Source: Octopus vulgaris (lineage: Eukaryota). From it: a stretch of 64,000 nt of DNA. Location: contig OX597830.1 in the NCBI GenBank assembly GCA_951406725.2, positions 63,922,001 to 63,986,000 of the forward strand. Direction: 5' to 3'. A program made the position numbers and the translations under genes. Position 1 is the stretch's first letter, and each line of letters starts with the position of its first letter. The notes beneath the pieces were generated by a model, which searched no databases, was not told the origin of the DNA, and was given only the letters and a program-made list of their open reading frames with translations. Of this stretch, positions 21,424-39,837 are shown piece after piece.

Positions 21424-21716
21424 GGCACTACTTGAGAACAGTGGTCCCGGTGCGCGCACTCGCGTAGTCGCGCATCCGCTCTTGCTAGTCGTGACTAGTC
21501 GATCCTACGACTGCTAGCAAAGTAAATAAAACACAAAATAAATAATTTTTTTACACAAAATAAATAAAACACAAAAAAACAAAGTAATTAATTTTTTAAA
21601 CAAAGTAAATAAAATACAAAAAAAAACAAAGTAAGGATCGACTAGTCATGACTAGCTGGCGCGGGTGCGCGAGTACGCGAGTGCGCGCACCGGGACCACT
21701 GTTCTCAAGTCGTACC
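21424..21716. mobile_element. Mutator-like MITE with ~83-bp GC-rich TIRs
   Basis: 21424-21506 is the near-perfect reverse complement of 21634-21716; GG...CC ends; 9-bp TSD ttaaaaaat / ttaaaaagt; A-rich internal repeats. Confidence 0.8.
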
Positions 21717-21869
21717 TTAAAAAGTTACATGAAATATATAATTAAAACTTAGAAATGAATATTCTTAAAATTCCGGGAGAGTGTCTATGTAAGGGAAATA
21801 ACCGGAGTGGCGCCCGGTGAAAGCGAGATAAGTCCTGGAAACTGACGGAGGGAAAAATTATCTCCAAAC

Positions 21870-23348
21870 ATGAACCGAAATGATGGAAGCGAACTGGTTA
21901 TTGGTGATCGTATCGAATGTGATGATTATTTTGGGACGATAAAATATATAGGAGAAGTTGACGCGATGGAAGGTGTTTGGTTTGGCATTGATTGGGACGA
22001 AATTCATCGGGGAAAACATGACGGAAGCTATAAAGGTAGGCGTTACTTTCAAGCAGGACATCCTAAATCTGGTTCGTTTATTAAACCAATAAAGGCTAAA
22101 TTGGGACAATCTTTCCCTGACGCTTACGTCTGTAAAGTTAAAGATGTTATTGATGTGCCTTCAAGAATTCTGATTCTCAATAATCATGCAATTTATGGTC
22201 TTGGTTCCCAGCAAGTGACCAGTCAGTTTTCGGCGATTGCCTCAAAAATAACAGAATTAGATCTTTCTGGTAATTTGTTGAAGAATTGGACTCAAGTTGC
22301 TGAAATTACTAACTTAATTCCTAATCTGTTGAAGTTAAATGTAAGTAATAACCGTTTAATAATTCCTGAACACGCGGAAAACTTGTCAAAATCTTTTGCC
22401 AAAGTAGAAGATCTGGTTTTAAACCGAATGAACTACGACTGGGTCGACATTTTATCTGCTACGTCGATGTTTCCGTCCCTTCGAGGTTTGTACGTGTGTT
22501 TTAATAATTTGGAAAAATTGGCTGATTCCACGGGGAAATTGACAAACCTGAAATTTCTCTCATTAATAGACAATCGCTTAAGTGACTGGAACGAACTTTT
22601 AAAACTTGGTCAACTTCCTCAATTGAGCACACTTTATGTAAATAACAATCAACTGACAGCCGTCTCCTTCAATGACGTACCTTTGGAAGACGGCGAGAAA
22701 ACCACATATTTTCCTTCTCTGAAGTGTTTAGATTTAAGCAGCAACCTCATCGATAACCTGTCATCAATCGATGAGCTTAGTAAATTAGCCAACCTTGCCG
22801 AGTTTTCTTTCCTTCATAATCCAGCAGCAGATATAGATGAGGACAAACTATTTAATTTGATAATTGCCAAAATTGGCAGTTTAAAAAAATATTCAAAAGC
22901 CGAATTCCTTGTCGAAGAACGGAAAAGTGCTGAAATATTTTATCTTCGCATGGTTGAGAAACAGGCATTAGAGAAAAATATCAGTGAAGAAGACACAGCT
23001 AAAACATGTTCAAGATACAAAGAACTGGTAAAGTTATATGGACATGCAAGTCCTGAATCATTAATAACCAAGACAACTGTTCTACGAGATAAATTAATTG
23101 CTGTTGACATTGAAACTGTTAATATTCCTGATAAAGTGTTCAAGAACAAGAAATTATCTCCAACCATGACCATTCTAAAACTGAAGTTACTTGTACAAAA
23201 ACTCTTTAAAATTCAAGAAATAACTAACCTAGAATTATCTTATATCAGTAAAAACAATTCTCAATTGGAAGTTCACTTAGAGAATGATTTGCATGAACTG
23301 TCGTTTTACAGTATAGAAAATGGTGATAATCTCGTTGCAAAATGGTAA
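21870..23348 (+). CDS. TBCE: Tubulin-specific chaperone E homolog, intronless CDS (492 aa: CAP-Gly, LRRs, LRR cap, ubiquitin-like domain)
   Basis: CAP-Gly GTIKYIGEV...GVWFGIDWD...RGKHDGSYKGRRYF...SGSF; LRRs (ITELDLSGNLL, LKCLDLSSNLI); ERxxAE cap; C-terminal UBL KKLSPTMTILKLK...LENDLHELSFYSIENGD..VAKW. Confidence 0.93.
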   Translation: MNRNDGSELVIGDRIECDDYFGTIKYIGEVDAMEGVWFGIDWDEIHRGKHDGSYKGRRYFQAGHPKSGSFIKPIKAKLGQSFPDAYVCKVKDVIDVPSRILILNNHAIYGLGSQQVTSQFSAIASKITELDLSGNLLKNWTQVAEITNLIPNLLKLNVSNNRLIIPEHAENLSKSFAKVEDLVLNRMNYDWVDILSATSMFPSLRGLYVCFNNLEKLADSTGKLTNLKFLSLIDNRLSDWNELLKLGQLPQLSTLYVNNNQLTAVSFNDVPLEDGEKTTYFPSLKCLDLSSNLIDNLSSIDELSKLANLAEFSFLHNPAADIDEDKLFNLIIAKIGSLKKYSKAEFLVEERKSAEIFYLRMVEKQALEKNISEEDTAKTCSRYKELVKLYGHASPESLITKTTVLRDKLIAVDIETVNIPDKVFKNKKLSPTMTILKLKLLVQKLFKIQEITNLELSYISKNNSQLEVHLENDLHELSFYSIENGDNLVAKW

Positions 23349-34483: not shown

Positions 34484-37228
34484 TTACCACTTTGCAATTA
34501 AACTATCGCCATTTTCTATGCTGTAATGAGACAGTGGCTTAAAATCATTGTCTAATTCAACTTTTACTTCAGGATTTTCTCTGCTGATATAAGATAGTTT
34601 TAGATTAGTCATTTCCTGAATTTTAAAGAGTTTTTGTACAAGTGACTTCAGTTTTAGAATGGTTATGTCTGGAGACAATTTCTTGTTCTTCAATACTTTA
34701 TCAGGAATATTATCAGTTTGGATATCAACAGCAATTAATTTATCTTGTAGCAGAATTGTTTTAGTTATCAATGATTCTGGACTCGCATGTCCATATTTCT
34801 TCACCAGTTCTTTGTACCTTGAACAGGTTTTAGCTGTGTCTTCTTCACCAATATTTTTTTCTAATGCCTCCCTCTCAACCATATCTAGATAATATACTTC
34901 AGCATTTTTCCTTTCTTCATCACGAATAAGGGTTTTATCATATTTTTTTAAACTGCCAATTTTACCAACGGTAATATAAAATAGTTTGTCCTTATATACA
35001 GCTCCCAATGGGTTATTTGCTAAAATAAGCTCAGTCAGGTTGGCCAGTTTGCTAAGCTCATCGATTGATGACCGGTTATTGATGTCATTCTTGTTTAAAC
35101 TTAGACATTCAAGAGAACGAAAATGTGATGTTTTCTTGCCATCTTCCAAAGATACGTCATTAAAAGAGACGGATGTCAATTGATTGTTATTTACGTAAAG
35201 TGTGCTCAACTGAGGAAGCTGACCAAATTTTAAAAGTTCATTTTCATCACTAATACGATTGTTTGACAATGAGAGGAATTTTAGCTTTGTCAATTTTCCT
35301 GTGGAATCAATAAATGTTTCCAAATTATTGAAACTTGCATACAAACGTTGAAGTGATGGAAACATTGATGTAACAGATAAAATGTTAGCCCAGTTATAGT
35401 CCATCCTGTTCAGAATAAGTTCTTCTACATTTGTAAAAGATTTTGCAAACATTTCTACATTTTCAGGAATTATCAAACGGTTACTACTTACATTTAATAG
35501 TATTAGATTAGGAATAATGTTAGCAATTTCCACAACTTGAGTCCAACTCTTCAACAGGTTAGTAGAAAGATCTAGTTCTGTTAATTTTGAGGCAATTGAC
35601 GAAAACTGACTGGTCACTTCCTGGGAACCAAGACCATAAACTCCATAATTATTGAGAAACAGAATTCTTGGAGTCATAATTAAAACATCTTTAGCTTTAC
35701 AGGCATAAGCATCAGGAAAAGACTGTCCGAGGTTAATGTGAAGTGGGTTAATAAAGGAACCAGATTTAGGATGGCTTGCTTGATAATAACGCCTACCTTT
35801 ATAGCTACCGTCATGTTTTCCCCAATGAATTTCATCCCAGTCAATGCCAAACCAAATACCTTCCATTGTGTCAACTTCTCCTATATATTTTATCGTCCCA
35901 AAACAATTCTCACTTTCAATACGATCACCAATAACCAGTTTGCTTCCATCATTTCGGTTCATATCTGGAAATAATTTCTTGTTTCTGATCATTTCTTCTG
36001 GAATATCACCATCTGTTAAATGACTTTGGAGGGAATGCTTTTCAGGATATTCATAACCATATTTCTGTCCAAGTTCTTTGTACCTTGAACACGTTTTAGT
36101 TAAGTCTTCTTCACTGATATTTTTCTCTAATGCCTGTTTCTCAATCATGCGAAGATAAAATATTTCAGCATCTTTCTGTTTTTCATCATGGATAATAGTT
36201 TTTGCATACTTTTTTAAACTGCCAATTTTGGCAATTATCAAATTAAACAGTTTGTCCTCATCTATATCTGCTGTTGGATTATGAAGGAAAGAAAACTCGG
36301 TAAGGTTGGCTAATTTACTAAGCTCATCGATTGATGACAGGTTATCGATGAGGTTGCTGCTTAAATCTAAACACTTTAGAGAAGGAAAATATGTGGTTTT
36401 CTCACCGTCTTCCAAAGGTACGTCATTGAAGGAGACGGCTGTCAGTTGATTGTTATTTACAGAAAGTGTGCTCAATTGAGGAAGTTGACCAAGTTTTAAA
36501 AGTTCGTTCCAGTCACTTAAGCGATTGTCTATTAATGAGAGAAATTTCAGGTTTGTCAATTTCCCCGTGGAATCAGCCAATTTTTCCAAATTATTAAAAC
36601 ACACGTACAAACCTCGAAGGGACGGAAACATCGACGTAGCAGATAAAATGTCGACCCAGTCGTAGTTCATTCGGTTTAAAACCAGATCTTCTACTTTGGC
36701 AAAAGATTTTGACAAGTTTTCCGCGTGTTCAGGAATTATTAAACGGTTATTACTTACATTTAACTTCAACAGATTAGGAATTAAGTTAGTAATTTCAGCA
36801 ACTTGAGTCCAGTTCTTCAACAAATTACCAGAAAGATCTAGTTCCGTTATTTTTGACGCAATCGCCGAAAACTGACTGGTCACTTCCTGGGAACCAAGAC
36901 CATAGATTACATAATTATCGAGAATCAAAATTCTTGAGCGCACATCTACGATATCGCCATGTTTACAGACGTAAGCGTCAGGGAAAGATTGTCCCAATTT
37001 AGCCTTTATTGGTTTAATAAACGAACCAGATTTAGGATGTCCTGCTTGAAAGTAACGCCTACCTTTATAGCTTCCGTCATGTTTTCCCCGATGAATTTCA
37101 TCCCAATCAATGCCAAACCAAACACCTTCCATCGCGTCAACTTCTCCTATATATTTTATCGTCCCAAAATAATCATCACATTCGATACGATCACCAATAA
37201 CCAGTTCGCTTCCATCATTTCGGTTCAT
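34484..37228 (-). CDS. TBCE: Tandem-fused TBCE homolog, intronless CDS, 914 aa: (CAP-Gly + LRR) x2 + one UBL
   Basis: Single open frame. Aa 1-422 are a TBCE unit truncated at the start of the UBL. Aa 423-914 (second MNRNDG, ATG at 35962) are a complete 492-aa TBCE colinear with the + strand gene. Confidence 0.92.
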   Translation of the reverse strand: MNRNDGSELVIGDRIECDDYFGTIKYIGEVDAMEGVWFGIDWDEIHRGKHDGSYKGRRYFQAGHPKSGSFIKPIKAKLGQSFPDAYVCKHGDIVDVRSRILILDNYVIYGLGSQEVTSQFSAIASKITELDLSGNLLKNWTQVAEITNLIPNLLKLNVSNNRLIIPEHAENLSKSFAKVEDLVLNRMNYDWVDILSATSMFPSLRGLYVCFNNLEKLADSTGKLTNLKFLSLIDNRLSDWNELLKLGQLPQLSTLSVNNNQLTAVSFNDVPLEDGEKTTYFPSLKCLDLSSNLIDNLSSIDELSKLANLTEFSFLHNPTADIDEDKLFNLIIAKIGSLKKYAKTIIHDEKQKDAEIFYLRMIEKQALEKNISEEDLTKTCSRYKELGQKYGYEYPEKHSLQSHLTDGDIPEEMIRNKKLFPDMNRNDGSKLVIGDRIESENCFGTIKYIGEVDTMEGIWFGIDWDEIHWGKHDGSYKGRRYYQASHPKSGSFINPLHINLGQSFPDAYACKAKDVLIMTPRILFLNNYGVYGLGSQEVTSQFSSIASKLTELDLSTNLLKSWTQVVEIANIIPNLILLNVSSNRLIIPENVEMFAKSFTNVEELILNRMDYNWANILSVTSMFPSLQRLYASFNNLETFIDSTGKLTKLKFLSLSNNRISDENELLKFGQLPQLSTLYVNNNQLTSVSFNDVSLEDGKKTSHFRSLECLSLNKNDINNRSSIDELSKLANLTELILANNPLGAVYKDKLFYITVGKIGSLKKYDKTLIRDEERKNAEVYYLDMVEREALEKNIGEEDTAKTCSRYKELVKKYGHASPESLITKTILLQDKLIAVDIQTDNIPDKVLKNKKLSPDITILKLKSLVQKLFKIQEMTNLKLSYISRENPEVKVELDNDFKPLSHYSIENGDSLIAKW

Positions 37229-37329
37229 GTTTGGAGATAATTTTTCCTCCGTAGTTTCTAAGGAATTACCTCGCTTCCACTGGAAACTATGAGAGTGATT
37301 TCCCTTAGATAAACACTCTTTTTTTCCCT

Positions 37330-37892: not shown

Positions 37893-39585
37893 TCTTTTAC
37901 TCGTTTCTGTCATTTTGATTGTGGCCATGCTGGAGCACCGCCTTTAGTCGAACAAATCGCCCCCCTGGATTTAGTCTTTGTAAGCCTGGTACTTATTCTA
38001 TCGGACGCTTTTGCCGAACCACTAGCTTATGGGGACGTAAGCACACCAAGATCGATTTTTCAAGCGATGGGGTGCGTGCGTGTGTGTGTGTGTGTGTGTT
38101 CAATTACATCAAGGATATAAAATCGAGTACAGGTAATAAAAAAAACCGATAGAATAAGTACTAGGCTCACAAAGAATAAGTCCTGGGGTCGATTTGCTCG
38201 ACTAAAGGCGGTGCTCCAGCATGGCCACAGTCAAATGACTGAAACAAGTAAAAGTAAGTATTTATATATAATCTTTCAAGTAGGATTTAATGAGGCTGCG
38301 CTGTAAGAAGTTCATTTCCCATCCATATAGTTTTGGGCAAATGTCTTCTATTATAGCCCTGGGTTGATCAAAGGTTTGAGACTGGTAGCCGTTGTGTGTG
38401 CGTGTGTATAGGGGGGGGGTGTTACTGTCTTCTTGCCTTGACATTGTGTGACAGTTGTAAACAAGTGTCATTCTCATGCAAGCTGTGTCCTTTGATTTCA
38501 GTCTGGCCATGGGAAACCTCATTTGGGAAAAAATGAGAGTTGGCCACAGGGAGGACGGTAGAAAAATCTGCTTCACCAAATTCTGTCAAACTCATGTAAG
38601 CAGCTGGGAAAAGTGAACATTAAAATGATGATGATGATGATGATGACGACGGCGACGACGCTAATGATGGTGATGATGATGACGATGACGACGGCGACGA
38701 CGCTAATGATGGTGATGATGATATTTCGCTGCTAAAATAGGTCATGAGAATTTTATTGAACATGGCCTTCACATTTATCTTAAACGTGTATAAATTTTGA
38801 GATTAGATTAGGCCGTCCATATTTCTCTGATAACTCAGTAGATTTTTTTCATTTGAATAACATTCGCCGCGTGTTATTAATTTTATTGTTGATATATAAA
38901 TAAAAGCCCCTCTTATCGAAGTTCAAACTGATAACAGAATTGCGAGGACTGTTCCACTGTGACATAAACTTATTTATATGAGAAATTAACAATGTTGAAT
39001 TAACATTCAATAAAATGCAAATTTATACTTTTGTTACGTTTTTACTATTATACCCATCATAAGTAAGTTGGAAAAATTCTTAGCATGCTAGACAAAATGT
39101 CTAGCAGCATTTCATCCATCTCTACATTCTGAATTTAAATTCCACTTATGAGAGCGGTTGGGTTTGTTTTCAGTAATCTCGCTTGTGTGAGCAGACGAGT
39201 TTATTTCAGATATTCTCATTTTAAAAATCATCTCTGACTAATTGTTGAGAGGACGTTGGTGTTGCCTTGGCGGAAGTTTGCGCTCTCTGAGTGCACTTGT
39301 TATTATTATTATTTTTACAATTATTATCATTATTATTATTATTATTATTATTGAGTGAGCGAGCAGAGCATGCCATCAAAGTGACACTGGGGTAAAATAT
39401 ACGAAGCCCAGTATACCCATCATGACTACCCGTCTGATAAGGGTACACCAGGCACATGCATCACAACCATATGTGCGCGACATGGTGATCTCATATCAAG
39501 ATAAACAGCACATGACCTTGCAGGTGGAGCCCAGTTAGAATTTTCTTCAGATCGAGTAACCCATATTATTATTATTATTTTTATA

Positions 39586-39617
<32 letters not shown>

Positions 39618-39630
39618 AATTAATATTATC

Positions 39631-39830
39631 ATTTCCTCAATTTTATGAAAGCAGAATAATTACCTGTTTAAAGTTATCATAGACAGGAATGTATTAAAGC
39701 CAGAATTACCATTTTGCAATTAAACTATCGCCATTTTCTAAGCTGTAATGAGACAGTGGCTTAAAATCATTGTCTAATTCAACTTTTACTTCAGGATTTT
39801 CTCTACTGATATAAGATAGTTTTAAGATTA
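39631..39830 (-). pseudogene. TBCE: Third TBCE copy, 3' remnant (last ~40 codons plus 3'UTR)
   Basis: LKLSYISRENPEVKVELDNDFKPLSHYSLENGDSLIAKW* (stop 39706-39708); nearly identical to ~34408-34608. Confidence 0.9.
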
Positions 39831-39837
39831 ATGAAAT

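Follow-up and report, generated by a model that had tools for sequence, protein, structure and literature searches.

It is known that genes can lengthen through internal tandem duplications that arise at microhomology, and repair by microhomology uses shorter matches than homologous recombination. In polyubiquitin-type polyprotein arrays, units lie head-to-tail in one frame and their number is variable. Efficient homologous recombination needs more than 200 bp in mouse cells and 337−456 bp in humans, as given in a passage of PMC3966225. For tubulin cofactor E (TBCE), part of PMC12881605 describes how the UBL anchors TBCE on the TBCD spiral while the LRR−CAP-Gly arm swings along α-tubulin. According to the same part of that paper, a single tubulin dimer is enclosed by the TBC complex, and attaching fusions to the ends of its subunits is disruptive (PMC12881605).

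Here, we analyse a window of 64 000 nucleotides from Octopus vulgaris (assembly GCA_951406725.2, contig OX597830.1, positions 63 922 001 to 63 986 000) that carries two TBCE genes, one of which encodes two units in a single chain. An initial annotation of this DNA had observed that the start-codon context of TBCE matches its own UBL coding sequence over 19 bp, and had put forward this match as the explanation of the fusion.

Results

A TBCE monomer and a fused TBCE in inverted orientation

The window consists of animal DNA rich in microsatellites and contains two long frames without introns, organized as follows.

21870..23348, plus strand: TBCE monomer, intronless, 492 aa, with CAP-Gly, LRR, helical bundle and UBL
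34484..37228, minus strand: fused TBCE, intronless, 914 aa, inverted relative to the monomer
35963..37228, minus strand: unit 1 of the fused TBCE, 422 aa, with CAP-Gly, LRR and helical bundle, without UBL
34484..35962, minus strand: unit 2 of the fused TBCE, a complete 492-aa TBCE with UBL, 73% identical to the monomer
35963..36052, minus strand: linker, residues 393−422 of the fused TBCE, with low pLDDT

The CAP-Gly family (PF01302) is matched once in the monomer and twice in the fused protein. LRR families are matched in both, each time followed by a helical bundle (helices 348−389 and 770−812 in the structure model of the fused protein). The UBL family (PF14560) scored below the cut-off of 23.1 (17.8 for the monomer and 21.3 for unit 2); the C-termini of both align with TBCE UBLs, and the UBL of unit 2 is folded at residues 832−913 in the model. 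Judged by sequence, both proteins are assigned to tubulin cofactor E. The best named relative of the monomer is O. bimaculoides TBCE (XP_014777020, 91%), and the fused TBCE has orthologues in XP_029647177 (98%) and XP_014777048 (90%); both window proteins are 98% identical to their O. sinensis counterparts.

Units 1 and 2 are 68% identical to one another. The linker between them is by descent the N-terminal part of a UBL, with a net loss of 10 codons. A different origin, as read-through of the leader of unit 2, was ruled out because the linker could be aligned with the UBL but not with the upstream sequence of the leaders.

The fused protein was modelled using AlphaFold2 (mean pLDDT 82.6, pTM 0.55). 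The model comprises two CAP-Gly−LRR−helical units, a low-confidence linker (392−421) and one UBL (832−913), and its best fold matches are TBCE chains. The low pLDDT of the linker is no proof of disorder, since only three alignment rows cover it.

The pair is shared by three Octopus species

The combination of a 492-aa and a 914-aa TBCE is also present in O. sinensis (XP_029647187 and XP_029647177) and O. bimaculoides (XP_014777020 and XP_014777048), and protein searches with approximately 8000 candidates scored returned no Octopus TBCE of any other form. A junction lying elsewhere in related species, which the initial annotation had named as evidence against its own proposal, was not seen: all three fused proteins found read IRNKKLFPD/MNRNDG (the slash marks the junction), so that the junction falls at the same residues in each. 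O. bimaculoides separated from the vulgaris−sinensis clade approximately 34 My ago, according to part of 10.1101/2023.05.16.540928. As the same pair and junction occur in all three species, the number of units has been constant for about that long.

Beyond these species, Argonauta (P0002) and the more distant P0003, P0004, P0192 and P0193, which we guess to be cephalopod-like, were found as TBCE monomers only. Two-unit TBCEs made up three of the 341 proteins compared, and three-unit TBCEs none. The search for fused proteins covered lengths of 502−1600 aa, with 7999 candidates scored. Among short proteins, six candidates gave three matches, none of them across the junction. With 50% representatives, P0001 was the sole close relative among the best 150, and the long proteins among the 10 representatives checked by name were unrelated fusions or gene models. 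A metagenome scan with the cephalopod alignment kept 80 of 112 loci at a best-segment identity of 22−56%, none close enough for a comparison of leaders. We found no paper on the fused pair in the literature on octopus or cephalopod TBCE or on TBCE duplication, although gene-family tables in the supplements of genome papers could list it; on TBCE duplication, the matches listed held one mention of TBCE, in salmon.

Two features distinguish the cephalopod-type TBCEs (P0001−P0004, P0192, P0193 and the window proteins). About 35 residues are missing between CAP-Gly and LRR, after approximately residue 96, as are eight residues of the helical bundle; bivalve, gastropod and nemertean TBCEs have both stretches.

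The start context of TBCE matches its UBL code

The sites related to the 19-bp match, and the two leaders, are as follows.

21855..21873, plus strand: leader/ATG 19-mer, AAATTATCTCCAAACATGA, reading KLSPN-M in frame; identical to the fused-gene leader at 37225..37243, minus strand
23151..23169, plus strand: monomer UBL 19-mer (KLSPTM), which shares 18/19 with the leader and contains an in-frame ATG 1296 nt away from the start codon
35959..35977, minus strand: fusion junction KLFPD/M (NKKLFPD/MNRNDG), AAATTATTTCCAGATATGA; agreement is 16/19 with the leader and 15/19 with each intact UBL
34663..34681, minus strand: unit 2 UBL site (KLSPDI), 16/19 to the leader, with ATA for ATG (Met to Ile)
21778..21869, plus strand: monomer leader, homologous to the fused-gene leader (73/90 aligned bases); a putative decayed UBL relic
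37229..37319, minus strand: fused-gene leader, resembling the unit 2 UBL code for about 45−75 nt past the 15-mer

The strings and coordinates on which the match was first based all proved correct, as did the agreement of 18/19 between the leader/ATG and the monomer UBL. Likewise, the breakpoint of the fusion does lie within the motif, with UBL-like sequence (AACAAG) upstream and N-terminal code downstream. In the structure model, the motif forms the end of the second strand of the UBL.

Of the 15 bases that precede the start ATG, 14 are the same as in front of the in-frame UBL ATG. The chance of at least 14/15 before one given ATG is 1.6 × 10⁻⁷ or, over the 24 ATGs in the coding sequence, 3.8 × 10⁻⁶ per gene; the best of the remaining 23 reaches 8/15. 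For at least 18/19 anywhere in the window, on both strands, the chance is 1.7 × 10⁻⁴. Only five sites in the window reach 15/19, all within the TBCE genes. The longest exact run is 13 bp between leader and monomer UBL, 11 bp between leader and junction and 6 bp between leader and unit 2 UBL.

The leaders probably share the motif through gene conversion

The motifs of the two leaders are identical because both lie within a longer tract.

21851..21997, plus strand: 147-bp tract identical in the monomer and unit 1, which includes the leader motif and starts four bases before it

The second leader is therefore no second witness: that the motif is the same in the leader of the fused gene, as first reported, is right as to identity, but this does not count as independent evidence. 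The monomer and unit 1 have other identical tracts of 349 bp (22287−22635) and 138 bp. In this genome the two agree over their first 89 residues, and unit 1 has been homogenized with the monomer across most of codons 1−340, with synonymous differences at 0/39 sites in codons 141−200 and in codons 201−260. Unit 1 begins MNRNDG here, as does the monomer, but MKRKDG in O. sinensis, where several of its residues are unlike those of its own monomer.

Eight residues that group by species pair the monomer with unit 1, compared with two that pair it with unit 2. These eight fall in residues 26−282, while 28 sites that group by paralogue fall in 91−106 and 344−432. Segment trees were mostly unresolved, and the order of units had no starred support. 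The 147-bp tract is likely to represent recent gene conversion, and the pattern as a whole suggests that the inverted copies, 11 kb from each other, have repeatedly undergone conversion. In this one genome, local mis-assembly could also contribute to the identical tracts of monomer and unit 1.

One patch of unit 1 just after CAP-Gly (residues 90−107; window 36910−36965, minus strand) is not homogenized with the monomer in any of the three species, and may be where function has diverged. Unit 2 of this genome alone carries tryptophan in place of arginine at its residue 47 (window 35822−35824, minus strand), before GKHDG.

The leader probably descends from UBL code

On the UBL side of the match, KKLSP[TS]M is present in Argonauta P0002 and in P0003 and P0004, and the pattern K[KR]L..M.[IV].K in 59 of the 341 proteins compared, including those of bivalves, insects and vertebrates. 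The motif is thus old, constrained coding sequence in the UBL, which argues that the leader is the likely copy and that sequence likely moved from UBL to leader. The only hint on what precedes the start codon in outgroups comes from P0004 and P0003, which have ASGFVT and MT, respectively, ahead of the matching Met.

Similarity between leader and UBL code falls sharply upstream of position −15. We compared what lies beyond, with the 15-mer removed, against nulls of 2000 dinucleotide shuffles and 2000 genomic pieces. The leader of the fused gene matched the unit 2 UBL with uncorrected p values, from overlapping tests, of 0.003 (45 nt) and 0.0045 (75 nt) by shuffles and 0.010 by genomic pieces. 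Against the monomer UBL, p was 0.03−0.05, a signal that was lost under one of three scoring schemes (67/149 reach the score). The joint p for an upstream extension of the fused leader was 0.003−0.0035, and with positions in the coding sequence as the null, 5 of 223 reached the joint score. The monomer leader was not significant in any test (p 0.09−0.40), and neither leader resembled the sequence upstream of the present junction (p 0.21−0.47). In an nhmmer search, the best non-gene match in the window was the fused leader, at profile positions 1242−1299 with the motif included (E 0.82). These results are suggestive of a similarity that extends 45−75 nt past the 15-mer, in the leader of the fused gene only.

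If, by a rough reading of the alignments, the relic had about 60−65% identity throughout, 14/15 next to the ATG would have a p of 0.005−0.014, so that extra constraint or later conversion is needed. When the window was searched with tblastn and nhmmer, an upstream unit that had been lost left no trace.

Neighbouring sequence

Part of the fused gene is present a second time in the window.

39149..39833, minus strand: duplicate of the 3′ end of the fused gene, with the last ~39 codons, the 3′ flank and a 199-bp downstream block

This corresponds to 33698−34607 (minus strand) and lies on the same strand, 2.4 kb upstream. The copy of the gene's 3′ end (39627−39830) is 96.6% identical to the original and the downstream block 92%, and duplicate and original are each broken by a different insertion. 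Such a duplicate resembles what is left of a recent tandem duplication. In the original, an insertion of approximately 510 bp (33897−34410, minus strand) that is absent from the duplicate directly follows the 3′ flank of the fused gene; it ends in CTAG, which we take to be Helitron-like. A GC-rich pair of 83-bp inverted repeats, 90% identical, lies at 21424−21716, ending about 150 bp before the ATG of the monomer, and resembles a small DNA transposon that sits in the promoter region. A 343-aa reverse transcriptase fragment (PF00078; 28086−29117, plus strand) lies between the two TBCE genes.

Discussion

Origin of the match and of the fusion

In our view the leader is probably, if by no means certainly, a decayed UBL relic from an old head-to-tail junction, and the match a trace of the fusion, not its first cause. 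Rare in-frame duplication would have linked the Met codon of the UBL with the start ATG by way of a few bases common to both (at least ATGA). A later copy would have started at the inner unit with its own ATG, leaving the upstream half of the UBL to decay into a leader of about 90 nt, and that arrangement would have yielded the inverted monomer and fused gene. The present junction would be either the original one or the product of a second crossover within a relic that was then longer and less decayed. Units 1 and 2 share D432 and T344, which fits the order with a second crossover. Subsequent conversion between the inverted copies would keep the monomer and unit 1 alike and their motifs identical. 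Closure of a circle from one ATG to the other would give the same, indistinguishable product.

That the leaders are relics of UBL sequence had been offered initially as the alternative to recombination at the match. It becomes the favoured reading, since the UBL motif is ancestral and the upstream extension has a p of about 0.003, but the extension is weak and uneven between the two leaders. Recombination at the motif, the main proposal, holds up in so far as the junction lies in the motif and falls at the same residues in all three fused proteins; a pre-existing chance match is weak as the first cause, because coding sequence on the UBL side is old and such a match has a chance of only about 4 × 10⁻⁶. 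A second crossover inside the relic would make the initial annotation partly right on cause.

A different order of events, which we regard as unlikely, has the fusion first, followed by a conversion from the 5′ end of unit 2 that copied the end of the junction into an unrelated leader. The tract would have run 15−19 bases past the ATG, and the match would again be a consequence of the fusion. Such an event would account for the sharp drop in similarity upstream of −15. It is also consistent with Y26, common to the monomer and unit 2 here and in O. sinensis but not in O. bimaculoides, and with synonymous differences between monomer and unit 2 of 2/24 in codons 1−40 compared with 102/287 elsewhere (Fisher p 0.006 for a window chosen post hoc). 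However, the leader has TCT CCA AAC, whereas FPD is encoded at the junction of all three species; the overwrite must then be older than their separation, and it leaves the upstream extension between leader and UBL unexplained.

We think it improbable that leader and UBL first matched by chance and that the match then guided one unequal crossover to the fused gene, as was originally proposed. The breakpoint does lie inside the motif. In addition, units 1 and 2 have D432 and T344 in common, unlike the monomer, and cluster with each other over residues 341−432 (86/87, not starred), as expected if one copy was duplicated internally after its split from the monomer; these shared residues could equally come from conversion between the units. 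Set against this order are the low per-gene chance of the match given above and, once more, the upstream extension. Slightly less probable still is a bolder form of the favoured reading, in which every Octopus TBCE, even the seemingly standard and essential copy, was reborn from an inner unit of a head-to-tail array and has its former UBL code as leader, and in which selection keeps the self-match for gain and loss of units, the junction Met giving the fused gene an additional one-unit product.

The claim that the gene carries a built-in device for changing unit number is not supported. A motif maintained for altering unit number in living populations is, to our mind, very unlikely, although the monomer retains 18/19, the junction Met is retained in all three species and the 96.6% identical duplicate indicates that the locus still duplicates. 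Against such a device, lengths are fixed at 492 and 914 aa in three of three species, no three-unit protein was found among the 341 compared, and in the fused gene itself the sites have diverged from the motif. The breakpoint of the 3′-end duplicate lies near codon 452 and not at the motif, and a crossover at the two sites of the monomer would leave a 60-aa stub. The motif offers 6−13 exact bases compared with the minimum of more than 200 bp in mouse cells, although mammalian minima may not hold in octopus, while longer exact runs are available elsewhere, of 39 bp between units 1 and 2 and 349 bp between monomer and unit 1. Today, the motif is likely to be inert for copy number. Finally, an assembly artefact can practically be dismissed for the fused gene: the monomer and unit 1 do share identical tracts of up to 349 bp, but three independently deposited species have the 914-aa form with the same junction, and the sequence of both unit 2 and the linker is unique.

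A two-armed TBCE

Homology and the part of PMC12881605 outlined above suggest that TBCE here would form TBC-DEG with TBCD and Arl2 and act on tubulin. The fused protein would dock on TBCD by the single UBL, in unit 2, and carry an additional CAP-Gly−LRR arm on a flexible linker. Identity between this genome and O. bimaculoides is 91% for unit 1, 89% for unit 2 and 91% for the monomer, and dN between monomer and unit 2 is 0.16 compared with a dS of 0.44. Conservation of both units at the level of the monomer, together with dN below dS, indicates that the fused protein is under constraint.

Quite apart from the motif, a TBCE with two arms that has been retained for about 34 My represents an uncommon natural variant of a complex in which a single tubulin dimer is enclosed. 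If the leader is indeed a UBL relic, a core housekeeping gene would have built its 5′ leader from its own C-terminal code, and the leader would be the record of a lost concatemer; cephalopod genomes already available make this testable. Duplication, microhomology joining and conversion, on which these events would rest, are all known mechanisms.

Comparison with known systems

The monomer and unit 2 have the CAP-Gly, LRR, helical bundle and C-terminal UBL of the known TBCE structures (PDB 9m1l_E and 9m1m_E, described in part of PMC12881605), whereas the Octopus fused chain has two units, the first without a UBL. The 147- and 349-bp tracts and the species-grouped residues resemble interlocus gene conversion between close paralogues, as outlined in part of PMC3966225; here, by contrast, the monomer's partner is one half of a fused gene that runs the opposite way, and the tract continues across the start codon to reach the leader. 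With duplication by circular DNA, as presented in part of PMC7450558, the locus shares the possibility that a circle between the two ATGs would set UBL code before a start codon, but no permuted distant copy is seen here, and the outcome is not separable from that of unequal crossing-over.

Gene elongation by tandem duplication has in-frame, head-to-tail units and a breakpoint at shared bases in common with the fused TBCE. Here, however, the shared sequence also precedes both the first unit and a separate monomer, an arrangement that one duplication alone does not produce. Arrays of the polyubiquitin type likewise have head-to-tail units in a single frame; in contrast, the units of the fused TBCE are 68% identical and unequal in their domains, their number is fixed in three species, and the chain has no known processing site.
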